From assembly GCA_017415485.1 (NCBI GenBank), contig JAFQGP010000009.1, positions 9,305 through 73,304 on the forward strand: a stretch of DNA of 64,000 nucleotides. The letters run 5' to 3'. Below are positions 19,087 through 39,611 of the stretch, one piece after another; position 1 is the stretch's first letter; each line of letters opens with the position of its first letter. Source of the stretch: Clostridia bacterium (GTDB lineage Bacteria > Bacillota > Clostridia > Oscillospirales > CAG-272). The notes beneath the pieces were generated by a model that was not told the DNA's origin, searched no databases, and worked only from the letters and a program-made list of their open reading frames with translations. A program made the translations under genes and the position numbers.

Positions 19087-19122
19087 AACGGGGCTGTGTT
19101 AACAAAAACGGCCCCGTTTTTG
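19087..19122 (+). terminator. intrinsic terminator of the efp operon
   Basis: AACGGGGC, 16-nt loop, GCCCCGTT, then TTTT. Confidence 0.7.
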
Positions 19123-21655: not shown

Positions 21656-21703
21656 CCTCGCGCGGCGCTCTATACCCTCCCAACCCTCCCGCAAGCGGGA
21701 GGG
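21656..21703 (+). repeat. CCCTCCC-GCAA-GGGAGGG hairpin repeat, copy C2
   Basis: CCTCGCGCGGCGCTCTATACCCTCCCAACCCTCCCGCAAGCGGGAGGG. Confidence 0.9.
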
Positions 21704-21753
21704 CAATTTTTATTATTCGATACCCCTAAATACTGCAAAAAATCCGCAAGCTA

Positions 21754-21850: not shown

Positions 21851-22036
21851 CAATTGCATAATACAATAAAAATCGTTTTTTCGGCGGCTTTGCCGACCGA
21901 AAAAACACCGCTAAGACGAGCAAAGCGAGTTCGCGCGCCGAGGGGAGCTGTCAAAATCGAAGATTTTGACAAGCGGCGATAAGCGCGCGTATCCCCGCCG
22001 AGCGGGTCTCAATTGTAAAACGCAGTTTTACAATTG
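21851..22036 (+). repeat. composite repeat B1 ending in the 27-bp perfect palindrome CAATTGTAAAACGCAGTTTTACAATTG
   Basis: Shares modules in the same order with 29073-29266, 49534-49709 and, inverted, 44385-44552: GTTTTTTCGGCGGCTTTGCCGACCGAAAAAAC, CCGAGGGGAGC, TCAAAATCGAAGATTTTGA, GGCGATAAGCGCGCG. The palindrome is at 22010-22036. Confidence 0.92.
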
Positions 22037-22061
22037 TTTATTCGAAGGGAGGTGGAAAGTA

Positions 22062-22562
22062 ATGGAGTTCGAGGACATCTACAAAACGTATTTTAAGTCG
22101 GTCTACCTATACATAATGCAGCTTTCGGGGAACGAGCACGTCGCCGAGGAGATCACAAGCGAAACCTTTTTCAAAGCGATAAAGTCAATAAACGATTTCC
22201 GCGGCGACTGCGATATGCGTGTCTGGCTTTGCCAGATCGCGAAAAATACCTATTATTCGTACATAAAAAAGAACAAAAAGGTGATAAGCCTTGAGGAGTC
22301 GGGGCTTGCGAGCATATCCGATCCCGATGACCTTGTTGATTCGCGGCTCGGCGACCGCGAGGACGCGCGGCAGATACGCAAGATAATGCATTCGCTGCCC
22401 GATCCGTATAAAGAGGTCTTTATGTGGCGCGTTTTCGGGGAGCTTTCGTTTAAGGATATCGGCGATATTTACGGAAAAACCGATAACTGGGCTTGCGTTA
22501 CCTACCACCGTGCGGTAAAAATGATTCAAAAGAGAATGGAGGAGATCAAAAATGAAAAATGA
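22062..22562 (+). CDS. ECF-type RNA polymerase sigma-70 family factor
   Basis: Region 2 (AEEITSETFFKA..VWLCQIAKNTYYSY) and region 4 (FMWRVFGELSFKDIGDIYGKTDNWACVTYHRA). The ATG at 22062 follows GGGAGGTGG. The upstream extension in the track runs through repeat B1. Confidence 0.88.
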   Translation: MEFEDIYKTYFKSVYLYIMQLSGNEHVAEEITSETFFKAIKSINDFRGDCDMRVWLCQIAKNTYYSYIKKNKKVISLEESGLASISDPDDLVDSRLGDREDARQIRKIMHSLPDPYKEVFMWRVFGELSFKDIGDIYGKTDNWACVTYHRAVKMIQKRMEEIKNEK

Positions 22563-23295
22563 GTGCAGTGTTGTACGCGATATTTTGCCCCTGTACCTTG
22601 AAAATATGGTCAGCGAAGAAACCGCGGAGTCGATCAAGGAGCATATTGAAAATTGCCCCGATTGTGCCGCGGAATTTGAAGCTATGAGATCGGGCAAGAC
22701 GGTTGAAAAGATCGGGGAAGAGGCGCAAAGCGATATTGAAGCCGAGGTGTTGAGATCGATAAAAAATATACGCAAAAAATTCCGAAAAAAGGTTTTGCGC
22801 GTCGGGTCTTTGATCGCGGCTGTTATTGCGACCGTTCTGATCGCGGGAGGGCTTTTGCTCCACTTTTTCCCCGTATATCGGATTGCACAGATCAGTCTTA
22901 ACGATTATTACAGCAAAGATCAGATGAAAATGGTGCTTTATATTGGTTCGGCATCCGACCGCAGAGAAGCGCAGTCGGTGCTTCGCTTGGCTGACAAGGC
23001 ATTTAACGATACTCGCCACACGAGAGAAGAAAACGAGGCGGAATACGGCTTGCTTGCAAGATATGCAACCCCCACCGACAGCTACGAGGATGCGGCGTAC
23101 AACCTGCACACGCTCGAGCTGTGGAGTGCTCATCTTGAAGAAAACGAGGGCTGGATATGGGTCTACTATTCGTCGGAGACCTACGCGCACCTTGGAAACG
23201 TGATCTGCGGAAGTTGGCGTATTCCGTCGCTTTGGAAGGTGGAAAAGAACGAATCGGGCGAATGGGTGGTGGTTGATATCCGCGAGCATCCCTGA
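22552..23295 (+). CDS. zf-HC2 anti-sigma factor, single-pass membrane protein
   Basis: HIENCPDC H-x3-C-x2-C motif, a TM helix (VGSLIAAVIATVLIAGGLLLHFF), and an 11-nt overlap with the sigma gene. Confidence 0.8.
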   Translation: MKNECSVVRDILPLYLENMVSEETAESIKEHIENCPDCAAEFEAMRSGKTVEKIGEEAQSDIEAEVLRSIKNIRKKFRKKVLRVGSLIAAVIATVLIAGGLLLHFFPVYRIAQISLNDYYSKDQMKMVLYIGSASDRREAQSVLRLADKAFNDTRHTREENEAEYGLLARYATPTDSYEDAAYNLHTLELWSAHLEENEGWIWVYYSSETYAHLGNVICGSWRIPSLWKVEKNESGEWVVVDIREHP

Positions 23296-23313
23296 CGCAA
23301 AGAGGTACACAAA

Positions 23314-23892
23314 ATGTATTTCCCGGAAGATATGAATTTTCAATATTTCTTTTTTGACACTTATATCGGCTACTTCCTGCAAGCACTGCCGATCGCGTTG
23401 CTGGTGAGTGCGGTATACGGTTTTATCAGGTTCAAAAAAGATAAGGAAACACCGATTTTCAGAAAAGTGTTCTCTTGCGTGTTTGTTTGCTATATGACGG
23501 GACTTGCGTGCTTGGTCATAGGACTTGATTTAATGAATATGTTTTGGTATAAACTGCTTTACCGTATGGATCCGGGTTTTACGATAAATTGGTTTGGCGG
23601 GTATTTCGACTTTGTTCCCGATCTCTTTAACAATATCAGCGCGGAAACTATCGGAAATGTTTTGATGTTTATGCCATTTGGTATTCTGTATCCGTTAACA
23701 CAGAAAGACCCTGCGTGGAAGAAATGTGTTATCAAGGGACTGATCACAATTGCCGCTATTGAAGTCCTTCAACCGATTTTCGGAAGGGCGTTTGATATGA
23801 ACGATATTATTTTGGACTCGATCGGTATTGTTGTTTCGGTATCGGTTTTTGTGGGCGTAAAAAGAATGTTGAAAAAGAAAAAAGCTAAATAA
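23314..23892 (+). CDS. VanZ family membrane protein
   Basis: GNVLMFMPFGILYP and NDIILDSIGIVVS motifs with 4-5 TM helices. Visibly lower GC. Confidence 0.8.
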   Translation: MYFPEDMNFQYFFFDTYIGYFLQALPIALLVSAVYGFIRFKKDKETPIFRKVFSCVFVCYMTGLACLVIGLDLMNMFWYKLLYRMDPGFTINWFGGYFDFVPDLFNNISAETIGNVLMFMPFGILYPLTQKDPAWKKCVIKGLITIAAIEVLQPIFGRAFDMNDIILDSIGIVVSVSVFVGVKRMLKKKKAK

Positions 23893-23904
23893 AATACTGC
23901 AAAA

Positions 23905-23943
23905 GGCTGTCTGGTTAAGTAACACGAGACAGCCATTTGTTTG
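23905..23943 (+). terminator. intrinsic terminator after the VanZ gene
   Basis: GGCTGTCT, 14-nt loop, AGACAGCC, then ATTTGTTTG. Confidence 0.65.
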
Positions 23944-24001
23944 ATTGTTATTCTAATAAATAACGAGATTTATTTTTATTTTCCGGCTTTGTCAAATAAC
24001 G

Positions 24002-24153
24002 AGCTTGTAGGGGAGGGCGCCCTCGACCTCCCGAGCCCAACGAAATTATATCTGTTGTATTAAATCAATATAATTTAACTTTAGTTACTCGATTTTATCA
24101 ACGCTGTAATTTTGTGCGGTTCGGGAGGTCGAGGACGCCCTCCCCTACAAGCT
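24002..24153. repeat. IR-bounded element E (36-bp terminal inverted repeats, 80-bp AT-rich core)
   Basis: AGCTTGTAGGGGAGGGCGCCCTCGACCTCCCGAGCC (24002-24037) against the complement at 24118-24153, 2 mismatches. Confidence 0.9.
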
Positions 24154-24199
24154 ATTATATTGATTTTTGCCTGTTTTTGATAAAGGTGGACGAAAACTT

Positions 24200-24958
24200 T
24201 CAAGCTTTAATAAATGTGGTTTTTGCGTTTTCGGGCTTTTCGACGAGGTCGAAAAAGTCGGCGTCGGAGATTACGTAATCGACGTCTCCGATGTTGCACA
24301 GCTCAAGCAGGTAGGTCTTGCCGATCTTTGAGCTATCGCAGAGGTATACCTTTGTTGTCGAGCGTGTGAGAGCCTTGGCGACGACGTTGTGCTCGGGCTC
24401 GATGGCGGCAAGGAGTCTGCCGTCGGTCGAAACGCCCGTGGTCGAGAAAAAGCATTTGTCGATATGCAGGCGCGAGAGGTTGTCGATGGCGAATTGTCCC
24501 GTCAGAGCCATCGAATTGTTCATTCGCAGGCCGCCGAGGGAGTAGACGGTGAGGTTTGAAAGGTCCTCGAGCTGCTCGAGCGTATGTATTCCGTTTGTGA
24601 CGACGGTGAGGTGGTTGAATTTCGCAAGGTGCGCGACCATACAGAGCGCGGTCGATGAGGCGTCGATGAAGATGATGTCGCCGTCGCGGATCAGCTCCGC
24701 CGCGCGCTGACCGATGTTCAGCTTCGCCTCGGGCATATTTTTGCGTCGCAAAAGGATGGGAAGCCCCGCTTCCTCGCCGTAATTGAGCGTCGCTTTGCCA
24801 TAAGCGCGATGCAAAAGCCCGCGGCTCTCGAGTACCTGATAATCGCGGCGTATCGTCGATGGGCTGACGAAAAGCTTTTTCGCCAAATATCCCACCGAAA
24901 CATCGCCCCTCGCGCGTAATATCTCAAGTATCTGCTCATATCTTTCTTCTCTTGACAT
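24200..24958 (-). CDS. DeoR/GlpR family transcriptional regulator
   Basis: N-terminal HTH (ILEILRARGDVSVGYLAKKLFVSPSTIRRDYQVLESRGLLHRAYG) plus a DeoR C-terminal sensor domain. I prefer the ATG at 24958, because the track extension reads through repeat D3. Confidence 0.9.
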   Translation of the reverse strand: MSREERYEQILEILRARGDVSVGYLAKKLFVSPSTIRRDYQVLESRGLLHRAYGKATLNYGEEAGLPILLRRKNMPEAKLNIGQRAAELIRDGDIIFIDASSTALCMVAHLAKFNHLTVVTNGIHTLEQLEDLSNLTVYSLGGLRMNNSMALTGQFAIDNLSRLHIDKCFFSTTGVSTDGRLLAAIEPEHNVVAKALTRSTTKVYLCDSSKIGKTYLLELCNIGDVDYVISDADFFDLVEKPENAKTTFIKA

Positions 24959-24980
24959 AGTTCCCCTCCCAATCAAAATA

Positions 24981-25141
24981 GCGGAAAGTTTTCGTCCACC
25001 TTTTTCAAAAGGTGGCGCCGTCAAGGGCGCGTAGCCCTTGCCGTCCTCCGCAGAGGACGGAACTCCCTTTTGCGCTTCGAAACGGAGGCGGGACGCCTCC
25101 GTTTCGGAAGGAGTAAAAACTCCCCCTTCGGGGAGTTTTTT
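24981..25141 (+). repeat. concatenated-hairpin repeat D3
   Basis: Head GCGGAAAGTTTTCGTCCACCTTTTTCAAAAGGTGG, then these hairpins: CAAGGGC..GCCCTTG, CCGTCCTC-CGCA-GAGGACGG, CGAAACGGAGGCG-GGA-CGCCTCCGTTTCG and AAAAACTCCCC-CTTC-GGGGAGTTTTT. Confidence 0.88.
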
Positions 25142-27694: not shown

Positions 27695-27806
27695 TTATCT
27701 CGCTTCGCGAGAGTTAAGATTGCGCTTCGCGCAAGTTAAGGTCGGCTTGCGCCGAGTTAATATCGCGCTTTGCGCGAGTTAAAATTCGCCTGCGGCGAAG
27801 TTAAAT
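27695..27806 (+). repeat. mini-hairpin array, 5 units, GTTAA linker
   Basis: Starts immediately after the stop codon. TTAA(G/T/A) at 27714, 27736, 27757, 27779 and 27801 (periods 22, 21, 22, 22). Units are tctcgc-ttc-gcgaga, ttgcgc-ttc-gcgcaa, tcggc-ttgc-gccga, tcgcgc-ttt-gcgcga and ttcgcc-tgc-ggcgaa. Confidence 0.92.
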
Positions 27807-27834: not shown

Positions 27835-28050
27835 GCGGAAAGTTTTGATCAAACTTTTTCAGAAAAGTATGTTTGCCTTCGGCAAACGGCGGAGTTTGAG
27901 GCGGAGCCTCATTTCAATGCGAGACCTTCAGGTCTCGCCACTGCGCTTCAAAATCACGAAGCTCCGCTTCGGGATTTTGGACAGAGTCAATACTTCCCGA
28001 TTGTAGGGAAGTATTGCGCTCTGTCACCCTCCGCGCGCAAGCGCGGATCG
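27835..28050 (+). repeat. concatenated-hairpin repeat D2 (conserved module 27937-28030)
   Basis: Head GCGGAAAGTTTTGATCAAACTTTTTC. The module GCCACTGCGCTTCAAAATCACGAAGC..GGACAGAGTCAATACTTCCCGATTGTAGGGAAGTATTGCGCTCTGTCACCCT matches 12118-12210. Confidence 0.9.
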
Positions 28051-28602: not shown

Positions 28603-29010
28603 TTATTCCTCCGTAAATTCCGTGATATGTTCGCCGTCAAAGGCAAGCCCCTCGTCGGTCAGAATGACCGAAAGGACTCCGAATCGCTTGTGTATCGCGC
28701 GAAGTATCTCCTCGGGGTCGAAGGTCGGCTCCTTGAGAAAGATCTCCGCGGTGTTCGAGTCGGTGAAGATGAAGCTGACGTAAGAAAGCGCCTCGCAAAG
28801 GGCGTCGTATTCGGCGGGCATCAGCGAGCCGTCGAAGCCCTTGACTATTGCCGTGATCGGCACATCTCTGCGAAGTGCGTCGATCAGCACGCTTCTATGG
28901 GCAGCGCGGCAGGGAAGAAGCGATTCCTCCGTCGGCACAAAGCAGATCATATCCGCATCCGCCGCGCCCTCAAGATTCATTATATTCGCATCAAGCGTAA
29001 AAGTTTTCAT
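28603..29010 (-). CDS. hypothetical protein, ribokinase/PfkB-like central fragment?
   Basis: ATG at 29010 after GGAGG. YVSFIFTDSNTAEIFL..GVLSVILTDEGLAFDGE resembles the middle of PfkB kinases, but the substrate lid and the C-terminal ATP motif are absent. Confidence 0.45.
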   Translation of the reverse strand: MKTFTLDANIMNLEGAADADMICFVPTEESLLPCRAAHRSVLIDALRRDVPITAIVKGFDGSLMPAEYDALCEALSYVSFIFTDSNTAEIFLKEPTFDPEEILRAIHKRFGVLSVILTDEGLAFDGEHITEFTEE

Positions 29011-29072
29011 TTCCGCCTCCAAATTTTACTGTTATTATTTTACCATAAATTTTTAAGAATTACAAGTTGGCT

Positions 29073-29266
29073 GATTGTAAAAGTTTGAAATTACAATAAA
29101 TTTCGTTTTTTCGGCGGCTTTGCCGACCGAAAAAACACCTCTTTGACGAGCAAAGCGAGTCCGCGCGCCGAGGGGAGCCGTCAAAATCGCAGATTTTGGC
29201 GAGCGGCGATAAGCGCGCGTATCCCCGCCGCGCGGATCTCAATTGTAAAACGCAGTTTTACAATTG
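29073..29266 (+). repeat. composite repeat B2 (palindrome at 29240-29266)
   Basis: Same module order as B1. The palindrome ends 25 nt before the GDPD ATG. Confidence 0.92.
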
Positions 29267-29291
29267 CCAAAATTAGAAAGGAAAAATTAAA

Positions 29292-30074
29292 ATGGCTATC
29301 AGATGGGAAGACGCAACAAGACAAAATATTCAGATCACCGCGCACAGAGGTATCAAGGATCTGATTCCCGAAAATACACTCCAGTCCTTCAAGGCGGCTC
29401 TCGACGCTCGCTGTGACGTTCTTGAATACGACGTTCACCTCAGCCGCGACAACGTGCCCGTAATTATGCACGACCAGACCGTCGAGCGCACCACCGACGG
29501 CTTTGGCGCGATCAGCTTTATGACCCTCGAAGAGATCAAAAAGCTCGACGCGGGTATCAAATTCGGCGAAGAATTCAAGGGCTACCGCGTGCCCACGCTC
29601 GAGGAAACTCTCGATCTTTTCGTCAGCTACGATTATAAGCCCCTGCACATCGTAGAGATCAAGGATTTCCGCCCCCAGTGCGTTGATATCATTGTCGAAA
29701 TGCTCCGCAAATACGACCTCGTCGAGCGCACCGTCATCGAGGCAGGCGACTGCCCCACGCTGAAATATCTTCAGGACTATTATCCCGAATTCAAGACTCT
29801 TTCCTTTATGCCCTATTCGATGAAGCGCCTTGACGAGTCGATCTACGACCGCCTCTACGGCGTTTCCCTTCCCGGCTCAAAGACCGACCCCGAAAGCGTC
29901 AAAAAGGTGCTCGACGGCGCCGATTTCGTTGAAGGCAAGGGACTCGTCCTCTTCCTTTCGGGCACGACCGAGGAGCAGATGGACAACGCCATCAACGCCC
30001 GCTGCGTAAACCTCACCACGAATAACCTTTATAAAGCGCAGGAGTATCTTGCGAAAAAGGGACTTAGAAAATAA
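29292..30074 (+). CDS. glycerophosphodiester phosphodiesterase family protein
   Basis: ITAHRG, ENTLQSF and EYDVHLSRDNVPVIMHD motifs. Confidence 0.88.
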   Translation: MAIRWEDATRQNIQITAHRGIKDLIPENTLQSFKAALDARCDVLEYDVHLSRDNVPVIMHDQTVERTTDGFGAISFMTLEEIKKLDAGIKFGEEFKGYRVPTLEETLDLFVSYDYKPLHIVEIKDFRPQCVDIIVEMLRKYDLVERTVIEAGDCPTLKYLQDYYPEFKTLSFMPYSMKRLDESIYDRLYGVSLPGSKTDPESVKKVLDGADFVEGKGLVLFLSGTTEEQMDNAINARCVNLTTNNLYKAQEYLAKKGLRK

Positions 30075-30379
30075 GTGATAAGTGGAAAGTGAAAAGTGTA
30101 AAGTTAAGGAAAATTTCCTCGCTTTGCTCGGAAATTAAAAATGATAATTTAATTCGGTATTGATGATCCATTATTAGGTGCGTCAATTCAATGCCTAAAC
30201 TAAAAAACTCGGATATTACGAAGATTTTTGCTTCATAATACTCGAGTTTTTCATTTACTTGTTATAGATTTGCATAGCACAAAGTTTTATCAACCCAGCA
30301 CAAAGTTATCGATATGAAATTTTCGCTTCAGAGAAAATTTTCCTTAACTTTCCACTTTTCACTTTCCACTTTTCACTTA
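30073..30379. repeat. heptamer inverted-repeat element HIR-5 (both arms, 230-bp core)
   Basis: The left arm (30073-30109) begins in the GDPD stop codon. The right arm (30342-30379) ends in the stop codon of the convergent isomerase gene. The core holds GGAAAATTTCC hairpins and a bidirectional terminator. Confidence 0.92.
30202..30251. terminator. bidirectional terminator-like hairpin (CTCGGATAT family)
   Basis: AAAAAACTCGGATATTA..TAATACTCGAGTTTTT, an imperfect stem with an A-run and a T-run on either side, between convergent genes. Confidence 0.55.
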
Positions 30380-31288
30380 TGCTTTAGCATACAGATCCAT
30401 AAGATACATACCGACCTTATATCCCAACTTTCCTGCTTCGATTCGCAGGTCGTCGGGGATCTTGGAGTAGAAGCCGTGGACTTCGTAGGTGAAGTCGCCG
30501 TCGTAGCCGATCTCTTTGAGAAGGGGCATGATCTCTTCCCAATTCGTGTTTCCGCGGACGAAGGGGAGGTAGTGATCGTCCTCGCGGCCGTCGCATTCCT
30601 GAACGTGAGTCGCGGCAAGACGGTGACCGAGCTTGCGCAGGGGCTTGACTTGATCGCGGTAAACGAGCTCTGCGTGGCCGAAGTCCCAGCAAGCGCGGCA
30701 GGAAACGGGGTCTCCCATCGCGTCGATGATGGCGATCTGCTCCTCAAGCGCGGCGGTAAAGCGGTGCTTCGTCTTTCCGGGGTTGAACTCTGCCATATTC
30801 TCGATGGCAATGCCGGTGCCCTCACGCTTGGCAAGCTCAAGAAGGGGAGTGTAGTAGTGGATATTCGCGCGCATATTTTCCTCGAAGCACATCTCATCGT
30901 TTTCGGTCGCCGTTTGCGCGTGGGTGACTATCCAGCGGACGCCGAGCCTGCCCGACGCGATGATGCAGCGGCGGCTTGCCTCGGCAAACCACACGCGGTA
31001 TTCGTCCGAAAGCTTCTGCTCGGGGCGGTAGAGATTCGAGTCAAAGGGCATGTGCGACTGCGAAAACTCAACGCCGAGCTTTGCCGCAAGGTTGCCGATC
31101 GAGTCGATGTTTCGCTCCCAATCGTCGCCCGCAAGCTCACTCTTTGCGCCAAGTCCGCCCGCGCCGCCCCAGTTGAGGTCGATCACGCGGAAGCCGCATT
31201 CGTGGCACATTTTGATGGATTCTTCAAGCGGTGTGCGCCCGCCCTGACGGTGAGCGGGGAAGATACAGGTTGAAGTAGCAAGCCTCAT
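30377..31288 (-). CDS. sugar phosphate isomerase/epimerase (xylose isomerase-like TIM barrel)
   Basis: 303 aa with a TIM-barrel family pattern (..IDLNWGG.., ..WIVTHA.., IAIENM, DFGHA). Confidence 0.78.
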   Translation of the reverse strand: MRLATSTCIFPAHRQGGRTPLEESIKMCHECGFRVIDLNWGGAGGLGAKSELAGDDWERNIDSIGNLAAKLGVEFSQSHMPFDSNLYRPEQKLSDEYRVWFAEASRRCIIASGRLGVRWIVTHAQTATENDEMCFEENMRANIHYYTPLLELAKREGTGIAIENMAEFNPGKTKHRFTAALEEQIAIIDAMGDPVSCRACWDFGHAELVYRDQVKPLRKLGHRLAATHVQECDGREDDHYLPFVRGNTNWEEIMPLLKEIGYDGDFTYEVHGFYSKIPDDLRIEAGKLGYKVGMYLMDLYAKA

Positions 31289-31360
31289 TTTTATATCTCC
31301 TTATACTTTAATGACCGCGCACCGCTCATAAGCGGGCGCGGTCTGAAAAAATTGTCTTAA

Positions 31361-32917
31361 TTAGTTGTCAAGAACAGCGTCAAGATCCTTGTTGAGGTCG
31401 GACATCGATCTCTTGAGAGTTCTGTCATACTGTGCCTTCATGGATGCCCAGCTGGTGGAAATAGCTGCAGCCTTGGAGGGCATTTCGCTCATAAAGCTGA
31501 GGATGTCGGAGAAGATACGGCCAAGGTCGAATGCGATGGACTCACGAACAATATCGAACATACGCGCGGAAGCACCCTTACCTGCGGTGTCGGGAGTGTA
31601 GCGGTACTTCATGTTGTTTTCGAAGATCATGGGCGAGGTCTTGCGGTAAGCCTCGGAAGCCATGCACTCGATAACTGCGGTGCTCATCTGGGGATTCTTT
31701 GCACCCTGCATTACACACCAAAGGGTAAAGGGATTGCCCACAACAGTGATGTACTCGGTCTGGTTCTCATCGTACATAGGAACGGGGAGAATACCGTATT
31801 CCCAATCGGCATTACGGAGGGGAGCTGCGCCGCCGCCGTACTGGGTATCAGCCATATATACACGGTTGAGGCAGAAGAGTGCGGTGCCTTCCTCAAAGGG
31901 AGCGTCGTAGTCAAGGCTGCCGCCGTGGGGGTTAACGTATGTATCGCCGGTCTTGAACCAAGTTCCAAGCTTATCAACAAGGTCGATGGTCTTCTGACCG
32001 AAGAAGTCTTCGGAAATGGCAAGGTTGGTGCCGTTGCCGGGAACGATGAGCATCATATCCGAACCGGTATAGAATGCGTCAAGGTGGAAGTAGGTGCTGC
32101 AGAATCCGTACTGGTCGCCGACGGAGGCGCCGCCGTCCTGGTCAAGGTCAACGTAAAGATCCTTGGTGTAATTGATAAGAGCGTCCAAGGTCCACTTCTT
32201 ATTGTCTACAAGATCAACGGGATCCTGAAGGTTCAGGTCCTCAAGAAGATCCATATTGTAGTAAACTGCATACATAAAGTGAAGCACGTTTGTGGAAATG
32301 TCGCCCGAAACGAAGAAGAGAGAATCCTTGATCGAACAGGTCTCGAGCATCGACTTGGGCCACCAGGGCTGCTCTACATTGATGTAGCTGTCCTCAATAG
32401 CATTGAGGTCCTGAATGAAGCCGTTGGTAAGAAGCATACCTGCGGTTCTGGAGTATGTAGCGATGATGTCATAGAATGTGCCGCCCGAGTAAGCGTTGCG
32501 GACGTAGTTTGTGAAGTTGGCGCGGTCGCCGGAGTCACCGGGGGTTCCGACCCACTCGAAGGTCACGCCCATGCGCTCTTCGGTTGCAAGGTTACGGCGG
32601 TAGATAGCGTCCTTGACCATATCTCCGTCAGCCTCGTCCTGGGTGATCTCGAATTCGGGACGTTCAACGTCATCCCAATAAAGAATGGTAACAGTCTCGC
32701 CCTTGAAGTCGATCTCATCTGCGAGGTCGTCCTTCCAGAAACCTTCGTCGTCATATCTGGGGTCTTTTTCGGGTGTTGTGTCCTCGGGTGTAGCCTGGGT
32801 CTGAGCGTTGTTTGCGGTGGTCTCTTCGCTTCCCTGAGTGTTTGCACAAGCAGCAAAGCAAGGAACCAGCATAAGAATCGCACAAACAAGCGCAATGATT
32901 CTTGCGTAAATTTTCAT
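31361..32917 (-). CDS. SBP-like lipoprotein, paralogue 1 (ABC-type extracellular solute-binding, LplA-like size class)
   Basis: Lipobox LVPCFAAC, Thr/Glu-rich linker, 518 aa. Clearly paralogous to 33262..34818 and 35010..36569 (shared blocks such as SGDISTN, YYNMDL, NRVY(M/V)ADAQYGG and ENNMKYRYTPD). Confidence 0.8.
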   Translation of the reverse strand: MKIYARIIALVCAILMLVPCFAACANTQGSEETTANNAQTQATPEDTTPEKDPRYDDEGFWKDDLADEIDFKGETVTILYWDDVERPEFEITQDEADGDMVKDAIYRRNLATEERMGVTFEWVGTPGDSGDRANFTNYVRNAYSGGTFYDIIATYSRTAGMLLTNGFIQDLNAIEDSYINVEQPWWPKSMLETCSIKDSLFFVSGDISTNVLHFMYAVYYNMDLLEDLNLQDPVDLVDNKKWTLDALINYTKDLYVDLDQDGGASVGDQYGFCSTYFHLDAFYTGSDMMLIVPGNGTNLAISEDFFGQKTIDLVDKLGTWFKTGDTYVNPHGGSLDYDAPFEEGTALFCLNRVYMADTQYGGGAAPLRNADWEYGILPVPMYDENQTEYITVVGNPFTLWCVMQGAKNPQMSTAVIECMASEAYRKTSPMIFENNMKYRYTPDTAGKGASARMFDIVRESIAFDLGRIFSDILSFMSEMPSKAAAISTSWASMKAQYDRTLKRSMSDLNKDLDAVLDN

Positions 32918-32997
32918 AATACCCTCCTTAAGGCATATTTTTAACTATTTTACCATAATAATTGTTAAAAGTCAAGCGGAATTTGGTAAATTTTATA

Positions 32998-33265
32998 GAA
33001 GTGGACAGTGGATGTAAAAGTGAACAGTGGTCAGTGGACAGTGAACAGAAAGATGCGGCTGATAATTTTGCTTGGTGCAAAGTGGGTTTGGGATTGCATA
33101 TAACTTAATTAATAAAGAAACCTCGGATATCAAGAAGCGTTAACTTCAAAATATCCGAGATTCCTGTAATTAAATTATCAGTCAATGCAATGGTTCAGTG
33201 ATGCAAATTAAATTATCAATTCGCATCTTTCTGTTCACTGTCCACTGACCACTGTTCACTTTTAC
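32998..33265. repeat. heptamer inverted-repeat element HIR-6 (GTGGACA/GTGAACA dialect, both arms)
   Basis: Left arm 32998-33057. Right arm 33222-33265, ending in the stop codon of SBP paralogue 2. The core carries the CTCGGATAT terminator. Confidence 0.9.
33112..33162 (-). terminator. intrinsic terminator of SBP paralogue 2 (CTCGGATAT family)
   Basis: Minus strand: TCTCGGATAT..ATATCCGAGG followed by TTTCTTT. Confidence 0.7.
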
Positions 33266-34818
33266 TCTCCCAGCGCATTCGCAAGACCCTTGTTGAGGTC
33301 TGCAAGGTTCTTCTTGAGCGCGTTGGTCTGCTGCTTGCCGGCGGTGGACCAGGATGCGCCGTCGAGGGCTGCGCGGAGAGGCTTTTCGCTGATGTAGTTC
33401 ATTTCGGCAGCGAAGAATCTGCCGAGGTCGAAGGAGATGTTTTCGCGGATGATGTCAAACATACGCGCGCCGTCGCCCTTGTTGGAGGAGTCGGGGGTGT
33501 ATCTGTACTTCATGTTGTTCTCAAAGAGAGCGGGAGAGGTCTTGCGGTAGCCCTCGGAGCCCATAACTTCCATAACCGCGGTGCTCATAGAAGCGTTGCG
33601 CGCGCCTCTCATAACACACCAAAGTGTGAAGGGGTTACCGATAAGGGTGATGTAATCCTCCTGATCTGCATCGTAGAGGGGATTGGGGATGATTCCGTAT
33701 TCCCAGTCTGCATTGCGGAGCTTGCCGCCGCCGTACTGTGCATCCGCAACGTAAACGCGGTTCTGGGTGAAGAGTGCGCGACCCTCAGCAAATACAAGGT
33801 CGTTGGGGAGCTTGCCGCCGGGAGGGTTGATGAAGGTGTCGCCAAGTTTGAACCAGGAGCCGAGCTTGTCAACAAGGTCGATGGTCTTCTGGCTGAGGTA
33901 GTCGTCGGAGATCTTGAGCACCTTTCCGTCAGTTGCGGGCTCAAGGAGCTTCATGCCGGAGCCGGAGTAGAATGCCTCAAGGTGGAAGTAGTTGGAGCAG
34001 AAGCCGTAACGGTCGTTGTCGCTTCTGTCCTGGGAGGAGTCAAGGTCGAGGTAGACGTCGGTGGTCATCTTGATGAGCGCGTCGATCGTCCAGGTCTTTT
34101 CGTCAACCATCTTCACGGGATCATCAAGACCGAGATCCTTGAGCATATCCATGTTGTAATAGATAGCGTACATCATGTGGAGAAGGTTGGTCGAGATGTC
34201 GCCCGAAACGAAGAAGAGGGAATCCTTGATCGAGCAGGTCTCAAGCATAGCCTCGGGCCACCAGGGCATATCGAGGTCGAGATGGCTGTCCTCAACGTCA
34301 TTGAGGTCCTCGAGAAGTCCGCTTGCGGAAAGCGATGCCGCTGTTCTCGAGTAGGTCGCGATGATGTCATAGTAGGTTCCTGCGTTGAAGGCGTTCTGAA
34401 CGTAGTTTACGAATGCCTTGAGGTCATTCGAATCGCCAGCCTGTTCGGTCCACTCAAGGGTCACGCCAAGGCGCGCCTCGGTTGCGATGTTGCGCTCGTA
34501 GATAGCGTCCTTGACAAGGTCAAGTCCGGTCTCGCTTTCAAGAACTTCAAATTCGGGGCGCTCAACGTCCTCCCAGCAGAGGATGCTGATCTTTTCGCCG
34601 GTGTATTTAACGTCATCGGGGAGCTTGGATTTAAGGTATCCGTCGTCATCATAATTAGGGTCTTTTGTAACCTCGGGCTCGGTCTCAACTATGGGAGCCT
34701 CGGTTCCCGCGATAGCTTCTGTGGTTTCCGCTTCGGTTCCCGTTTCAGCACAAGACGCAAAGAGGGAAAGAACCATAACGAGAGCACAGAAAAGAGAAAT
34801 GATCTTTGTGATCTTCAT
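33262..34818 (-). CDS. SBP-like lipoprotein, paralogue 2
   Basis: I prefer the ATG at 34818 (MKITKIISLFCALVMVLSLFASC lipobox). Homologous to paralogues 1 and 3 throughout. Confidence 0.8.
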   Translation of the reverse strand: MKITKIISLFCALVMVLSLFASCAETGTEAETTEAIAGTEAPIVETEPEVTKDPNYDDDGYLKSKLPDDVKYTGEKISILCWEDVERPEFEVLESETGLDLVKDAIYERNIATEARLGVTLEWTEQAGDSNDLKAFVNYVQNAFNAGTYYDIIATYSRTAASLSASGLLEDLNDVEDSHLDLDMPWWPEAMLETCSIKDSLFFVSGDISTNLLHMMYAIYYNMDMLKDLGLDDPVKMVDEKTWTIDALIKMTTDVYLDLDSSQDRSDNDRYGFCSNYFHLEAFYSGSGMKLLEPATDGKVLKISDDYLSQKTIDLVDKLGSWFKLGDTFINPPGGKLPNDLVFAEGRALFTQNRVYVADAQYGGGKLRNADWEYGIIPNPLYDADQEDYITLIGNPFTLWCVMRGARNASMSTAVMEVMGSEGYRKTSPALFENNMKYRYTPDSSNKGDGARMFDIIRENISFDLGRFFAAEMNYISEKPLRAALDGASWSTAGKQQTNALKKNLADLNKGLANALGE

Positions 34819-34891
34819 CTTGAAATTCTCCTTCAAAAATTTTATTTCATCATATTTTACCATATTTTGCGTAATAATTCAAGACGAAAAT

Positions 34892-34938
34892 GAAAAAATC
34901 TCGGATATTAAGAAGCGCACTTCAAAATATCCGAGATT
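34892..34938 (-). terminator. intrinsic terminator of SBP paralogue 3 (CTCGGATAT family)
   Basis: Minus strand: ATCTCGGATATT, 16-nt loop, AATATCCGAGAT, then TTTTTT. Confidence 0.75.
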
Positions 34939-34984
34939 ACATTTAATCGTTATTATTCAGATCTGAACAAAATTACCGGTCGCG

Positions 34985-35007
34985 CCTTTCTGTTCACTAA
35001 TCACTGA
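34985..35007. repeat. partial heptamer arm (remnant)
   Basis: CCTTTCTGTTCACTAATCACTGA resembles the HIR-6 right arm CATCTTTCTGTTCACTGTCCACTGA. No partner arm is present. Confidence 0.6.
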
Positions 35008-35009
35008 AA

Positions 35010-36569
35010 TCAGTCAACGATCTTCTCAAGCGACTTATTGAGCGAGTTCATAGCTCTGGTGAGAGCTACCTTCTGCTGTTTCATGATGGTTGCCCAGCTG
35101 GAGCCGTTTGCTGCAGCGTCGGAGGGCATCTCGCTCATGTAGGAAAGGCTGTTGGAGAAGAGACGGCCAAGGTCAAAGTTGATGTTTTCGCGGATGATGT
35201 CGAACATACGCGCGGAGTCACCCTTACCTGCGGAGTCGGGAGTGTATCTGTACTTCATATTGTTCTCAAAGAGAGCGGGCGAGGTCTTGCGGTAAGCCTC
35301 GGAAGCGAAGCATTCGATAACAGCGGTGCTCATCTTGGGATCCTTTGCGCCGTTCATAACCGACCAAAGAGAAATGGGGTTGCCGAGAAGGGTGATGTAC
35401 TCTTCCTGTTCGGAGGTGTAAAGGGGAGTGGGAAGGATGCCGAATTCCCAGTCAACGTCACGAAGGGGACCTGTGCCGCCCGCATACTGTGCGTCTGCCA
35501 TGTAAACACGATTCTGGATGAATACACATTTGCCTTCCTGGAAGGGAATATCCTCGTCGAAGCTGTCGCCGCGGCGGGAAACGTAGCAGTCGCCCTGCTT
35601 GAACCAAGCACCGAGCTTGTCTGCAAGGTCGATAGCCTTCTGGCTGTAGAAGTCGTCGGAGATCTTGAGGATTCCCTCGGGATCGTCATCAACAAGGCGG
35701 AGACCCGAGCCGGAGTAGAATGCGTCGAGGTGGAAGTAGGAGGAAGAGAAGCCGTACTGGTCGCCCTCGGACTTGTCGCCCGACTGATCGGCATCAACGT
35801 AAAGACCGCTGCTCAATTCGATGAGCTTGTCAACGGTCCAGGTCTTGTTGTCAACAAGAGCAACGGGATCCTCGAGATTGAGATTCTTGAGAAGGTCCAT
35901 ATTGTAATAGATCGCGTACATGAAGTGAAGGATGTTGGTCGAGATGTCGCCCGAGATGAAGAAGAGCGAATCGTCGATCGAACAGGTGTCCACCATGCAC
36001 TTGGGCCACCAGGGCTGCTCAAAGTTGAGGTAGCTGTCTTCGATGGTGTTAAGGTCCTGAAGGTGTCCGTTTACGCAAAGCATAGCGGATGTTCTGGAGT
36101 ATGTAGAGATGATGTCATAGAAGGTGCCGCCGGAGTAGCAGTTGGTAACGTAGTTTGCAAAGTTTGCGCGCTGTCCGTTGTCGCCCTCAACGCCGGTCCA
36201 CTCAAGGGTAACGCCCATGCGGTCCTCAACTGCGAGGTTACGGTTGTAGATAGCGTCCTTGACCATATCGGTGCCGGTCTCTTCTTCAAGGATCTCGTAT
36301 TCGGGACGCTCAACGTCGGACCAGTAAAGAATGGAAACAACTTCGCCCTTGTAGTCGATCTCGTCTGCAAGGTCGTCCTTCCAGAAGCCGTCCTTGTCGT
36401 ATTTATCTGCATTGGGATCAACAACTACGGTGTCGTTGGGTGTAGCCTGGGTCTGAGCATTGTTCGCCGTGGTCTCCTCACCGCCCTGCGTATTTGCGCA
36501 AGAAGCAAAAGCGGGAACCAACAGAAGAACAGCACAGATCAGAGAAATGATTCTTGCAAATTTTTTCAT
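35010..36569 (-). CDS. SBP-like lipoprotein, paralogue 3
   Basis: Lipobox LVPAFASC. The post-lipobox segment CANTQGGEETTANNAQTQATP is almost the same as in paralogue 1. Confidence 0.8.
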   Translation of the reverse strand: MKKFARIISLICAVLLLVPAFASCANTQGGEETTANNAQTQATPNDTVVVDPNADKYDKDGFWKDDLADEIDYKGEVVSILYWSDVERPEYEILEEETGTDMVKDAIYNRNLAVEDRMGVTLEWTGVEGDNGQRANFANYVTNCYSGGTFYDIISTYSRTSAMLCVNGHLQDLNTIEDSYLNFEQPWWPKCMVDTCSIDDSLFFISGDISTNILHFMYAIYYNMDLLKNLNLEDPVALVDNKTWTVDKLIELSSGLYVDADQSGDKSEGDQYGFSSSYFHLDAFYSGSGLRLVDDDPEGILKISDDFYSQKAIDLADKLGAWFKQGDCYVSRRGDSFDEDIPFQEGKCVFIQNRVYMADAQYAGGTGPLRDVDWEFGILPTPLYTSEQEEYITLLGNPISLWSVMNGAKDPKMSTAVIECFASEAYRKTSPALFENNMKYRYTPDSAGKGDSARMFDIIRENINFDLGRLFSNSLSYMSEMPSDAAANGSSWATIMKQQKVALTRAMNSLNKSLEKIVD

Positions 36570-36755
36570 GGTTTGCTCCTTTATATTTTATTTCACTCTA
36601 TATTTTATCACAATCGGATATATTTGTCAATCGCATTATAAACAAAACTGATTTGGCTAAAGTGTGCATTCTGCACAAAAGCCGGAAACTCAATTATAAT
36701 ATTATAATAAAAGATAAAAAATTGTGAACGGATTCTAAAACTTCGGGGAAAAGCC

Positions 36756-36784
36756 TTTACTTTTTTAAGTAATTGTGGTATAAT
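36756..36784 (+). promoter_or_regulatory. promoter with extended -10 for rpsO
   Basis: TTTACT (36756-36761), 17-nt spacer, TGgTATAAT (TATAAT at 36779-36784). Predicts a leader of about 100 nt. Confidence 0.55.
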
Positions 36785-36890
36785 TCTATTCGAATGACGC
36801 CGGCTCGGTTTTCGGACAAAGGCACCAAGTGCACTTCACCCACCGATCGCTGTGCCCGCGCATAATATTATTTCATATGAGGTGAAAATT

Positions 36891-37154
36891 ATGACCAAAG
36901 CTGAAAAGCAGGCAATCATCGCCGAGTACGCAACTTGCGAAGGCGATACCGGATCCCCCGAGGTACAGATCGCGATTCTTACCCACAGAATCAACTCGCT
37001 CAACGAGCACCTTAAGGTTAACACCCACGACAACCACAGCCGTCGCGGACTCCTTAAGATGGTTGGACGCAGAAGAAATCTCCTCAAGTATCTGATGAAC
37101 GTTGATATCGAGCGCTACCGTTCGATCATCGCAAGACTCGACATCAGAAAGTAA
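36891..37154 (+). CDS. rpsO: 30S ribosomal protein S15
   Basis: [62 protein letters not shown]. The ATG at 36891 follows GAGGTGA. Confidence 0.96.
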
Positions 37155-37160
37155 TACGGA

Positions 37161-37206
37161 TGGGGCAAGGAGGACGGTCGCGATTTTCGTGCCGCCCCTT
37201 GCCCCA
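37161..37206 (+). terminator. GC-rich stem-loop after rpsO (attenuator or processing hairpin; no U-tract)
   Basis: TGGGGCAAGG..CCTTGCCCCA with a 26-nt loop, followed by AATG rather than a T-run. Confidence 0.35.
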
Positions 37207-37218
37207 AATGTATTCTAC

Positions 37219-37368
37219 AAGTGAAAAGTGAAAAGTGAAGAGTGAAAAGTGAAAAGTTGAGGTGAACGGCTCTGACGGTTTTCCTTGGAAAACGGCGGTG
37301 TTCAGCCGCCGAGACAGAGTCGAAATTTGCCGAAGGCAAATACTTCCTCGCGGAGCTCGGAAATTTTC
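37219..37368. repeat. heptamer arm (GTGAAAA x5, solo) plus hairpin chain
   Basis: GTGAAAA GTGAAAA GTGAAGA GTGAAAA GTGAAAA GTTGAGG (37221-37262), then GGTTTTCC-TTGG-AAAACGG, GGCGGTGTTCAGCCGCC, TTTGCC-GAA-GGCAAA and CTCGGAAATTTTC. Confidence 0.88.
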
Positions 37369-37499
37369 ATTTTATTTTTAAACTAACGTCCGCAAAAGGA
37401 TTAGCAGTTAACATCGCGCACAAGATGGGATTGCGCGTAATGTTAAGTGCTAAACCGTGAGCGGATGATGAATATTAAATTTTTTGGAGGTACAAAATT

Positions 37500-39611
37500 A
37501 TGTACGAGATCAAAAGTTCCGCTAAGGTATTTGACCAGCACAGAGTGTTCCATTACACACTCGCAGGCCGTCCCCTTGTCGTTGAGACCGGCAAGCTTGC
37601 AGGCCTTGCAAACGGCGCGTGCCTTGTAAGATACGGTGAGACATCCGTTCTCTGCACCGCGACCGCATCCGAAAAGCCCCGCGAGGGCATCGACTTCCTT
37701 CCCCTCTCGGTAGACCTTGAGGAAAGAATGTATTCCGCAGGTAAGATCCCCGGCGGTTATCTCAAGAGAGAAGGCAAGCCCAGCGAAAAGGCAGTTCTCA
37801 CTTCCCGCGTTATCGACCGTCCCGTTCGTCCTCTCTTCCCGAAGGACCTTCGCAACGACGTTGCCCTCACCCTCACCGTTATGTCCGTTGACTATGACTG
37901 TGAGCCCGAGGTAGTTGCTATGATCGGCGCGTCCATCGCTCTTTCCATCTCCGACATTCCGTGGAACGGTCCTCTCGGCGGTCTCCACATCGGTCTTTGC
38001 GATGGCAAGCTCGTGATCAACCCCACCGAGGCACAGAGAAAGGTCTCCGACCTTGAGCTCACCGTTGCCGCTTCCCGCGAAAAGGTCGTTATGATCGAGG
38101 CAGGAGCAAACGAGGTTCCCGATGACGTTATGTACGATGCAATCATGCTTGCACACGAGGAGATCAAGCGCTTCCTCGACTTCGTTGACGCTATCGTCGA
38201 CGAGATCGGCAAGCCCAAGTTCGAGTATCCTTCGGGCGAGCTCGATCACGATATGTTCGACAAGATCTTCGCATTCTGCGAGAAGGATCTTATGAACGCA
38301 CTTGACACCGATGACAAGAACGTTCGCGATGCAAGAATGGTTCCGATCACCGATGCTATCCTTGAGAAGTTCTCCGAGGAGTATCCCGATCTTCCCGTTC
38401 AGATGCCCGAGCTCGTTTACAAGATGCAGAAGAAGGTCGTTCGCCGCTGGCTCCTCGAGGACGGCAAGCGTGTTGACGGCCGTGCAATGAACGAGATCAG
38501 GCCTCTCGCTGCAGAGGTTGGTATGTTCCCCAGAGTTCACGGTTCGGGTATGTTCACCAGAGGCCAGACTCAGGTCATCACTTTCGCAACTCTCGGCACT
38601 CTCGCTGAGGTTCAGATGCTCGACGGTATCGATAACGAGACCGAAAAGAGATATATGCACCACTACAATATGCCCGGCTTCTCCACCGGTGAGGCAAAGG
38701 CATCCCGTACTCCCGGTCGTCGTGAGATCGGTCACGGTGCACTCGCAGAGCGTTCGCTCGTTCCCGTTCTTCCTTCCGCTGAGGAATTCCCCTATGCTAT
38801 CCGTCTTGTTTCCGAGGTGGTTTCCTCCAACGGTTCGACCTCTCAGGCATCCGTTTGCGGTTCTACTCTTGCTCTTATGGACGCAGGCGTTCCGATCAAG
38901 GCTCCCGTTGCAGGTATCTCCTGCGGTCTTATCACCGAGGGTGAGCGTTGGATGACCATGATCGACATCCAGGGTGTTGAGGACTTCTACGGCGATATGG
39001 ACTTCAAAGTTGCAGGTACTCACAAGGGTATCACCTCCATTCAGATGGACCTCAAGATCGACGGTCTTACTCCCGCGATCATCAAGGAAGCTCTCGAGTC
39101 CACTCACGCAGGCCGTGACTACATCATCGACAACGTAATTCTCAAGGCTATCGACGCTCCTCGCGCCGAGGTCAACGAGTATGCTCCCAAGATGATGACC
39201 GTCAAGATCGATCCCGACAAGATCCGCGAAGTTATCGGTAAGGGCGGCTCCGTAATCCAGAAGATCACCGCTGACACCGGCGCAAAGATCGATATCGAGG
39301 ATGACGGCACCGTTTACATCGCAGCAGTTAACCGCGCATCCGCTGACGCAGCCAAGGCTGTTATCGACGCTATCTGCTTCGAACCCGAGGTTGGCGCTGT
39401 TTACACCGGTAAGGTAACCGGCATCAAGGAGTTCGGCTGCTTCGTTGAGTATGCTCCCGGCAAGGAGGGCATGGTTCACATCTCCAAGATCGCTGACAAG
39501 CGTATCGACAAGGTAGAGGACGTTCTCTCCCTCGGCGACACCGTTAAGGTCAAGTATATCGGCCTTGACAAGAAGGGCAGAATGGACTTCTCCATTAAGG
39601 ACGCAAAATAA
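37500..39611 (+). CDS. pnp: polyribonucleotide nucleotidyltransferase (PNPase)
   Basis: Two RNase PH domains, a KH domain (IGKGGSVIQKI) and an S1 domain (GKVTGIKEFGCFVEY). Confidence 0.97.
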   Translation: MYEIKSSAKVFDQHRVFHYTLAGRPLVVETGKLAGLANGACLVRYGETSVLCTATASEKPREGIDFLPLSVDLEERMYSAGKIPGGYLKREGKPSEKAVLTSRVIDRPVRPLFPKDLRNDVALTLTVMSVDYDCEPEVVAMIGASIALSISDIPWNGPLGGLHIGLCDGKLVINPTEAQRKVSDLELTVAASREKVVMIEAGANEVPDDVMYDAIMLAHEEIKRFLDFVDAIVDEIGKPKFEYPSGELDHDMFDKIFAFCEKDLMNALDTDDKNVRDARMVPITDAILEKFSEEYPDLPVQMPELVYKMQKKVVRRWLLEDGKRVDGRAMNEIRPLAAEVGMFPRVHGSGMFTRGQTQVITFATLGTLAEVQMLDGIDNETEKRYMHHYNMPGFSTGEAKASRTPGRREIGHGALAERSLVPVLPSAEEFPYAIRLVSEVVSSNGSTSQASVCGSTLALMDAGVPIKAPVAGISCGLITEGERWMTMIDIQGVEDFYGDMDFKVAGTHKGITSIQMDLKIDGLTPAIIKEALESTHAGRDYIIDNVILKAIDAPRAEVNEYAPKMMTVKIDPDKIREVIGKGGSVIQKITADTGAKIDIEDDGTVYIAAVNRASADAAKAVIDAICFEPEVGAVYTGKVTGIKEFGCFVEYAPGKEGMVHISKIADKRIDKVEDVLSLGDTVKVKYIGLDKKGRMDFSIKDAK

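Follow-up and report, generated by a model that had tools for sequence, protein, structure and literature searches.

Palindromic intergenic cassettes built on heptamer repeats in a member of the Clostridia

We analysed a stretch of 64,000 nucleotides from a Clostridia bacterium of the order Oscillospirales (assembly GCA_017415485.1, contig JAFQGP010000009.1, positions 9,305 to 73,304 of the forward strand), referred to below as the window. Its intergenic gaps hold palindromic cassettes built on a heptameric simple-sequence repeat of the GTGAAAA type, the same class of element as the heptamer repeats of Xanthomonas, Nostoc and Beggiatoaceae. The arrays act as microsatellites, gaining or losing one unit between strains, and the sequence of their units turns over far more rapidly than the genes on either side. 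The two arms of an element are kept alike by exchange between them, and the same recombination inverts the segment that they enclose. Furthermore, cassettes are exchanged between genomes or loci at a fixed site. We read the elements as slippage-prone palindromic cassettes, symmetric by recombination between their arms, associated with terminators and probably serving as hairpin barriers between transcription units. The chances of this combined reading are about even: its account of the DNA dynamics is very probably correct, and the barrier function is a tentative proposal that falls somewhat short of an even chance.

Anatomy of the arrays and elements

Tandem Repeats Finder reported period-7 arrays starting at 10991, 15571, 19125, 19239, 20795, 20904, 30073, 30347, 33000, 33231 and 37219. 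The main arrays hold 4.0-7.3 copies of the unit, and the remnant at 34985-35009 was not scored. Searching for the pattern GTGNAAAGTGNAAAGTG with at most two mismatches gave 30 matches, compared with 0.09 expected from shuffled sequence. All 30 matches, runs of (AAGTGNA)n and their complement, are intergenic, and the gaps make up only about 12% of the window. In a DNA sequencing run holding the strain of the window, arm plus junction is about ten times deeper than the flanks. The inverted-repeat arms made of heptamers, and their occurrence as a multi-copy family, are therefore real, as a first-pass annotation of the sequence had claimed. The assembled Logan contigs break at the arrays because these are repeats.

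From the gene border inward, an arm consists of 4-6 units of the form A-G-T-(G/T)-N-N-N, a junction GTTAAGG or GTGAAGG, and a small hairpin with an AT-rich stem, GGAAAATTTCC...GGAAATT. The arms had been drawn as heptamers alone; the heptamers stand, and the arms extend beyond them into AAGG and GGAAAATTTCC. Stems AATTTTC...GAAAATT at 11029-11049, 15613-15636 and 30315-30343, with halves 3-11 nt apart, match the two half-sites of the CodY box, AATTTTCWGAAAATT; this may be coincidence.

Four elements are two-armed, with inverted-repeat arms of 44-51 nt that are 80-100% complementary. In the two short ones (19122-19272 and 20795-20936) two small hairpins flank a short AT core. The two long ones (30071-30380 and 33000-33265) have 164-210 nt between the arms, with a central hairpin between an A-run and a T-run. 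Enclosed hairpins and an AT-rich core had been described at first; the long cores also hold this separate hairpin. Both central hairpins (30198-30256 and 33113-33168) resemble bidirectional intrinsic terminators in the correct orientation for the upstream genes, and a related copy is found at about 34895-34940. Folded as single strands, the two-armed copies each form one long hairpin (z = -9.8 for each short copy; -110 kcal/mol and z = -11.1 for 30060-30392), and the solo arrays are unstructured. The features are as follows; SBP denotes a solute-binding protein.

10991-11024, plus strand: solo array GTGAAAA GAGGAAA GTGGACA GTGAAAA GTGAAGG, at the left edge of the gap between fmt and the Zn-peptidase gene (Tandem Repeats Finder, pattern, Pfam flanks)
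11025-11050, unstranded: small AT-stem hairpin AATTTTCGC-TTT-GCGAAAATT, on the inner side of the 10991 array
15571-15605, plus strand: solo array upstream of priA, with AAGG and a hairpin (15606-15636) inward (Tandem Repeats Finder, pattern, Pfam)
19122-19157, plus strand: left arm of a short two-armed element, directly after the intrinsic terminator 19088-19122 of a 113-aa gene
19158-19235, unstranded: inner segment of hairpin A, AT-rich core TTTTTATAAAAAT and hairpin B, inverted in strain L192 relative to L193
19236-19272, minus strand: right arm; the sulfatase ATG (19324) follows 51 nt downstream
20795-20830, plus strand: left arm, beginning in the sulfatase stop codon
20831-20898, unstranded: inner segment of hairpin A, AT core and hairpin B; both L192 and L193 have it in the orientation opposite to that of the window
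20899-20936, minus strand: right arm; the ATG of the next gene (20968) follows 31 nt downstream
30071-30120, plus strand: left arm of four GTGNAAA units, GTTAAGG and GGAAAATTTCC, containing the GDPD stop codon 30072-30074
30198-30256, unstranded: central hairpin of A-run, CTCGGATATTACGAAG / CTTCATAATACTCGAG and T-run, invariant across seven related elements
30331-30380, minus strand: right arm, containing the stop codon 30377-30379 of the convergent gene for a xylose-isomerase-like TIM-barrel protein
33000-33057, plus strand: left arm in a GTGGACA/GTGAACA dialect; the perfect repeat starts at 33014, where GTAA mirrors the stop codon of the far-side gene
33113-33168, unstranded: central terminator-like hairpin, followed on the minus strand by GUUUCUUUAUU, in the right orientation for terminating the SBP gene 33262-34863
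33222-33265, minus strand: right arm, covering the SBP stop codon 33262-33264 and one coding base
34985-35009, minus strand: remnant of a right arm (CTGTTCA CTAATCA CTGAAA), directly next to the stop codon of SBP gene 35010-36569
37219-37262, plus strand: solo left arm in the rpsO-pnp gap, after the GC-rich hairpin of rpsO (37162-37205)
15655-15759, unstranded: tandem array of 21-22 bp period, with a unit of TTAAC linker plus small GC hairpin (Tandem Repeats Finder)
27697-27804, unstranded: linker-plus-hairpin array of about four units of AGTTAAG plus hairpin, at the left edge of its gap and with the polarity of left arms (Tandem Repeats Finder)

The paired arms are 19124-19174 / 19221-19271 (51 nt, 80% complementary), 20795-20838 / 20892-20935 (44 nt, 80%), 30071-30120 / 30331-30380 (50 nt, 94%) and 33014-33057 / 33222-33265 (44 nt, 100%). 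Both stop codons at the third of these lie inside the inverted repeat, as had been noticed for the copy at 30073-30379. The 21-22 bp arrays (15655-15759, 21536-21581, 27697-27804 and 63008-63101) follow the grammar of the heptamer arrays, with one small GC hairpin per linker (AGTTAAG or AATGATN).

Arrays in the purine sense (GTGAAAA/GTGTAAA) have stop codons in all three frames and those in the complementary sense have none in any frame, so that false open reading frames (ORFs) are lengthened or created. The priA ORF at 13033-15636 appears 30 codons too long because it runs through an array, and a spurious ORF of 318 aa (18127-19083, minus strand) lies opposite efp. We rejected the latter as a gene, since gene calls on strain contigs place efp (18157-18714, plus strand) and the 113-aa gene (18733-19074, plus strand) there. 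The element at 19122-19272 therefore lies between two tandem plus-strand genes, after the classical terminator 19088-19122.

Change of the elements between strains

The elements were compared on contigs carrying an identical GDPD protein, with up to 10 strain contigs per orthologous gap and flanking genes 94-97% identical. At the gap behind the GDPD gene the unit is GTGNAAA in the window and in L197 and L199, GTGCAGA/GTTAAGA in the group of L192, and GTGGACA with a different core in the group of L193 and L194. Other gaps have ATGCAAA, AGTTGCT, AGTGGCT or GTGAAGA; in the rpsO-pnp gap, for example, other strains have GTGAAGA or AGTGGCT units. Only the AGT core of the unit is kept, and four of the seven positions vary between strains and loci at orthologous sites. 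It had been proposed at the outset to compare unit numbers between strains and to look for inversion between the arms, and both kinds of change were found. The number of units differs by ±1 between strains at rpsO-pnp and at the gap between the sulfatase gene and a 169-aa gene.

The arms change in concert. Between the window and L192 the coding flanks are 95-96% identical and the inner core 92%, but the arms only 72-75%. The right arm of L192 is nevertheless the exact complement of its left arm, irregular unit included, and an alignment of seven related elements revealed 16 arm base pairs changed on both sides. In the perfect repeat 33014/33265 the SBP stop codon and one coding base are mirrored in the far arm as an odd unit, GTAAAAG, which points to arm-to-arm copying at the DNA level.

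The enclosed segment is also found in both orientations. In the gap between the 113-aa gene and the sulfatase gene, the inner segments of L193 and L192 are 62% identical on the same strand, but 91% identical when one is reverse complemented. For the next gap, the window and L192 gave 58% and 71%, respectively. The innermost units move with the inverted piece, showing that the crossovers lie inside the arrays. Together with the mirrored irregular units and the mirrored stop codon, these breakpoints demonstrate the exchange between arms. A programmed switch, in which a site-specific recombinase flips the core between the arms and changes expression of the neighbouring genes, would also give both orientations at two loci among three strain groups, and arms of 35-50 nt around cores of 46-210 nt have a suitable layout. 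However, no recombinase gene was found nearby among the Pfam-scanned window proteins or on the strain contigs, no clear directional promoter lies inside, and the neighbours are housekeeping genes. Furthermore, the inner segments are nearly symmetric (hairpin, AT core, hairpin), so flipping changes little, and breakpoints within the arrays are what plain homologous recombination predicts. We consider such a switch extremely unlikely.

Cassettes have a history of their own. The flanks of L197 are as diverged from the window as those of L192 (96%), yet its element is 97-98% identical to that of the window; compared with L192, this indicates that the history of the cassette is decoupled from that of its flanks. 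Whole cassettes are swapped at the same site between strains, and L194 has a full two-armed element at the site of the remnant 34985-35009. In L192 one SBP gene has been lost by a deletion whose end coincides exactly with the inner border of an arm (AAGG|). Deletion junctions at arm or hairpin junctions suggest that the cassettes are hot spots of rearrangement. The number of SBP genes varies between strains (L192 15758-16091 compared with L194 15468-17724), and RNA-run contigs contain joints at window positions 33010>34894 and 30111>30354. The gap between the AP_endonuc_2 gene and the SBP gene is 72 nt long in the window (31289-31360) and holds one terminator hairpin. In L192, L196, L197 and L200 it is 243 nt long, with four or five different small hairpins that mostly follow an ATTTCAC-type linker, the first two following CCTTAAC and ATTTCGC.

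The elements had been called MITE-like, that is, similar to miniature inverted-repeat transposable elements. If they were a true MITE family, the arrays would be terminal inverted repeats for a transposase encoded elsewhere, the dialects subfamilies, and the gaps would have been invaded repeatedly. The inverted termini of the likeness are present, in a dispersed multi-copy family, and the decoupled history of the cassettes is consistent with this explanation. Furthermore, three arms at two loci of L192 share one identical 32-nt sequence, position of the irregular unit included, with cores that by eye are much more diverged from each other than the arms. TA...TA flanks are found at 19122/19272 and 30073/30379. 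They are missing at 20795/20936, at 33000/33265 and at several strain copies, so that inspection of all copies yielded no consistent target-site duplication. Nor did the expected empty sites in relatives appear: in the 10 strain contigs every orthologous gap is occupied, often by another cassette, and the differences at these gaps are replacements or deletions rather than precise insertions. The absence of a transposase, as first noted, holds for the called genes of the strain contigs and for the approximately 42 window proteins scanned against Pfam, among which there was no recombinase either; about a dozen of these had no Pfam match, and the scan left out the proteins at 16091-17338, 17458-17886, 21966-25024 and 51824-52111. 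In addition, the arms differ between loci within the strain of the window, solo arms keep the polarity of the gap edge, and a single transposon family would not account for a polarity and geometry shared by heptamers that are unrelated and come from unrelated phyla. We regard it as unlikely that these are MITEs.

Placement, polarity and possible function

In all 12 window arrays the plus strand reads GTGNAAA toward the left side of the gap and TTTNCAC toward the right, so that the purine-rich strand reads inward. The arrays lie toward the edges of the intergenic regions, 0 to about 80 nt from the neighbouring gene; four arms abut a stop codon, and in two elements stop codons lie inside the palindrome. 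In the sense of the mRNA, purine runs (GUGAAAA) follow stop codons, often behind a classical terminator (19088-19122) or a GC-rich hairpin (37162-37205), and pyrimidine runs (UUUUCAC) precede start codons. One clear exception to the polarity was seen in the lineage, a heptamer palindrome midway in a divergent gap (L193 14935-15025) that starts with its T-rich arm, (TTCATNN)n ... (NNATGAA)n.

The same placement was found in other genomes. More than 119 genome contigs, drawn from many phyla, carry arrays of (GTGNAAA)x3. Where an inverted partner lies within 400 nt, the order is unit followed by its reverse complement in 28:0 cases in genome contigs, and in 7:1, 1:0, 9:2 and 2:0 cases for four sets of heptamers in viral contigs, giving 47:3 overall across phyla and repeat units. 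A crude ORF heuristic placed the nearest long ORF 5' of the array 63 times and 3' of it 27 times; of the 63, the stop end adjoins the array in 44 and the start end in 19. By the same heuristic the median distance between array and ORF is 25 nt for the 5' neighbour compared with 86 nt for the other. Terminator hairpins lie between the arms in other phyla as well (e.g. L035 and L051), and another Clostridia metagenome-assembled genome (L084) has the full module: two stop codons, array, AAGG, hairpin and then UUUUCGAUU. A universally conserved GTGAAAA motif was considered and rejected, as viral contigs contain heptamers of permuted sequence but equal composition about as often (50, 50 and 72 stretches, compared with 77 of GTGNAAA). 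What is widespread is thus heptamer arrays in general and not the GTGAAAA word. Since the polarity holds across phyla and units, the explanations narrow to processes linked to transcription or to DNA processes that are strand-polar.

The arrays may have arisen on the A-tract and T-tract flanks of bidirectional terminators, as suggested by their fixed polarity, with the purine arm first, and by their association with terminator hairpins. Any dialect seems acceptable as long as complementarity is kept, so any function should depend on duplex formation and not on sequence. The element would accordingly be a sequence-independent barrier of one long hairpin, which could terminate or attenuate transcription, stop 3' exonucleases or be cut by RNase III. 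Where a pyrimidine run stands alone, it would act as an unstructured leader before the ribosome-binding site.

Several observations weigh against the barrier and against selection at the RNA level. At 10991, 15571, 19272 and 20936 only 15-51 nt separate the pyrimidine arm from the start codon, too little for a promoter; were termination efficient at these sites, genes such as priA and that of the Zn-peptidase would be silenced. The small hairpins of the arms are weak, with AU-rich stems (z = -1 to -2.7), and are followed by U-runs with interruptions or, in other dialects, by tails that are not rich in U; with dialects such as CUCUGCA, the classical U-tract mechanism cannot be general. A transcript of a long element that stops at the central terminator never holds both arms, and selection on RNA can therefore not maintain their 94-100% complementarity. 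Copying at the DNA level can, which leaves room for arrays without function. The RNA and DNA runs entered the analysis as assembled Logan contigs.

The individual distances illustrate the first of these points. On the minus-strand mRNA the 10991 array is of UUUUCAC type, 15 nt upstream of the ATG at 10975. The true start of priA is at 15546 on the minus strand, 24 nt from the outer end of the array at 15571, and RNA-run contigs run from the priA coding sequence through 15571-15605, although DNA carry-over is possible. The outer end of the 33000 array is 82 nt from the ATG, with a good promoter, TTGACT-17-TAAAAT (with TG), in between. A promoter TTTACA-17-TACACT, flagged at three arrays, arises from the 7-nt period itself; it was rejected as a general promoter since other dialects at the same sites lack it and RNA-run contigs cross the array into priA.

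Arrays without any function would be neutral by-products of polymerase slippage, seeded on the AT-rich flanks of terminators, tolerated in non-coding DNA and made symmetric by recombination. The unit sequence is free to change, GTGNAAA is not commoner than permuted heptamers, and the complementarity persists in long cores where RNA pairing cannot happen, all of which speaks for this explanation. Heptamers are also the most abundant class of long repeats, and polymerase slippage has been suggested, according to the account of Mrazek et al. 2007 given in PMC4679880. On the other hand, every strain examined has an array in the same gap although the sequence turns over fast, the arrays hold steady at 4-6 units with no drift, and their polarity is strict. 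We consider absence of function fairly unlikely, with a better prospect than the transposon explanation. If it is true that the arrays are tolerated products of slippage, they are still useful to know for annotation, since they extend false ORFs, interrupt assemblies and indicate where rearrangement is frequent.

The arrays might instead bind a protein that recognises heptads in single or double strands and so controls translation or transcription of the adjacent genes, such as a cold-shock protein, ribosomal protein S1, a nucleoid protein or a CodY-like regulator on AATTTTC...GAAAATT. The pyrimidine runs 15-51 nt before start codons are probably in the 5' untranslated region, and TAACTGA repeats have been interpreted in the same way (PMC4679880). 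At the cholera toxin promoter, regulators bind to TTTTGAT heptads, as reported in bioRxiv 10.1101/2021.05.14.444153. In Prevotella and other Bacteroidales (contigs L027, L028, L032, L044-L046, L075, L083, L096, L112 and L121), the -7 promoter box TAnnTTTG is immediately preceded by (TTTTCAC)n; in L027 two divergent promoters each have an array of their own. Nevertheless, a protein would have to tolerate change at four of the seven positions, with only AGT kept, the flanking genes are functionally unrelated, and the purine-sense arrays behind stop codons are left unexplained. Protein binding is very unlikely in our view.

A broader proposal is that heptamer-array palindromes are a general, polarity-constrained architectural element of bacterial gene boundaries. 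In one version they would form a register-independent "zipper" terminator or insulator, where each 7-nt step is a new release point of hairpin plus weak hybrid. In the other, a dedicated copying or recombination activity would homogenise arms within and between loci, and this would explain the tendency of a strain to share one dialect and the identical irregular arms on elements with diverged cores. We consider this proposal quite improbable, a little more so than a MITE family. The placement of heptamers at gene borders was noted between 2007 and 2015 without explanation; the many close natural strains in public assemblies display concerted arms, flipping DNA and cassette exchange beside fixed neighbour genes.

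Genomic setting and known systems

The window carries a gene cluster of Firmicutes type, priA-def-fmt-(Zn-peptidase)-rsmB-rlmN-PP2C phosphatase-PASTA kinase-rsgA, identified by Pfam and by gene calls on strain contigs, and furthermore efp, rpsO-pnp, recA-recX, recG and nrdD. We assign def to 12508-13020 (minus strand) tentatively, by its place in the gene order. The usually compact priA-def-fmt operon is interrupted at 12029-12507 by some 480 nt of non-coding DNA crowded with hairpin repeats. Proteins of the window recur on rumen and gut metagenome contigs and in the metagenome-assembled genome GCA_017466585.1. RNA-run depth over efp and an unannotated 142-aa ORF just upstream (17458-17886; depth measured over 17496-18647) is 10-20 times that of the neighbouring genes, and drops again ahead of the element at 19122.

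Other repeats share the gaps. A family of about 150 bp, GTTTTTTCGGCGGCTTTGCCGACCGAAAAAACACC ... CAATTGTAAAACGCAGTTTTACAATTG, is found in four gaps (21880-21960, 29100-29262, 44380-44560 in inverted orientation, and 49560-49720), with a DNA-run depth 5-10 times the single-copy level. Two families of short hairpin repeats are GGACAGAGTCAATACTTCCCGA.TGTAGGGAAGTATTGCGCTCTGTCACCC, at 12155-12215 and 27975-28035, and CCCTCCCAACCCTCCCGCAAGCGGGAGGG, at 12330-12365, 21675-21705 and 63225-63250. Rfam gave no match at gathering score over the whole window, and none at E <= 1 over 29000-37600. ARAGORN found no tRNA or tmRNA, and a literature search by the repeat sequence itself retrieved nothing relevant.

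Bidirectional intrinsic terminators consist of an A-tract, a GC hairpin and a T-tract, and sit after stop codons and between convergent genes. The elements share their polarity, A-rich on the 5' side and T-rich on the 3' side, and the central hairpins 30198-30256 and 33113-33168 fit the description. The arms, however, are periodic arrays of 30-50 nt rather than homopolymer tracts of 5-9 nt, some dialects are not U-rich, and some copies lie directly before genes that need to be expressed. Correia elements of Neisseria are MITEs of 100-300 bp, intergenic and multi-copy, transcribed as hairpins, with ends that can resemble promoters, fixed terminal repeats of 26 bp and a TA duplication. Our elements are likewise small, intergenic and bounded by inverted repeats, but their termini are variable microsatellites, and there is no consistent duplication or transposase.

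REP, BIME and REPIN sequences are described in PMC2817692 and PMC3184786 as extragenic palindromes after stop codons, in alternating and strain-variable mosaics, thought to stabilise the upstream mRNA. As given in these sources, REPs are GC-rich hairpins of 20-40 nt with a conserved GTAG-type head and a RAYT transposase, whereas the stems here are AT-rich and variable in sequence. No conserved head was found, and no RAYT-like gene was seen among the scanned window proteins, which does not support membership of the REP/BIME group.

The TAACTGA direct repeats of marine Beggiatoaceae, also present in some Cyanobacteria and Bacteroidetes, occur in 2-6 copies, many of them just before start codons, and have no tie to gene function; a post-transcriptional role through binding of S1, Csp or CsrA was proposed (MacGregor 2015, PMC4679880). 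Our arrays are similar short intergenic heptamer runs, many just upstream of start codons and unrelated to the function of the gene. The TAACTGA repeats are almost all direct (one inverted set in 170), have a single fixed unit and overlap the ribosome-binding site, while here inverted pairs are common and the unit is variable.

The closest likeness is to the GGGAATC repeats of Xanthomonas and the GGGGA(C/T)T repeats of Nostoc (Rehm et al. 2015, PMC4692102). With approximately 4 copies per array, some 90% of them are intergenic; they lie closer to the 5' ORF whatever its orientation (28 compared with 160 nt), a rule identical to the one seen here, and form 70-75 convergent inverted pairs per genome. 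Their sites are conserved, length and sequence vary among close relatives, and no function was found. Tandem 7-nt units, intergenic bias, proximity to the 5' ORF, convergent pairs and conserved sites with variable sequence are all found here, and the initial remark that arms built from microsatellites are unusual has to be qualified, since inverted intergenic heptamer pairs of the same geometry were already published for Xanthomonas. Our host differs in being a gut member of the Clostridia, and the units here are A-rich without G-runs, which excludes G-quadruplexes. The arrays are also joined to AAGG and AT-stem hairpins and to arrays of linker plus hairpin. The elements thus belong to an already described class with unexplained function, to which the concerted change of the arms, the inversion of the core and the swapping of cassettes, unreported for Xanthomonas and Nostoc, are added here.

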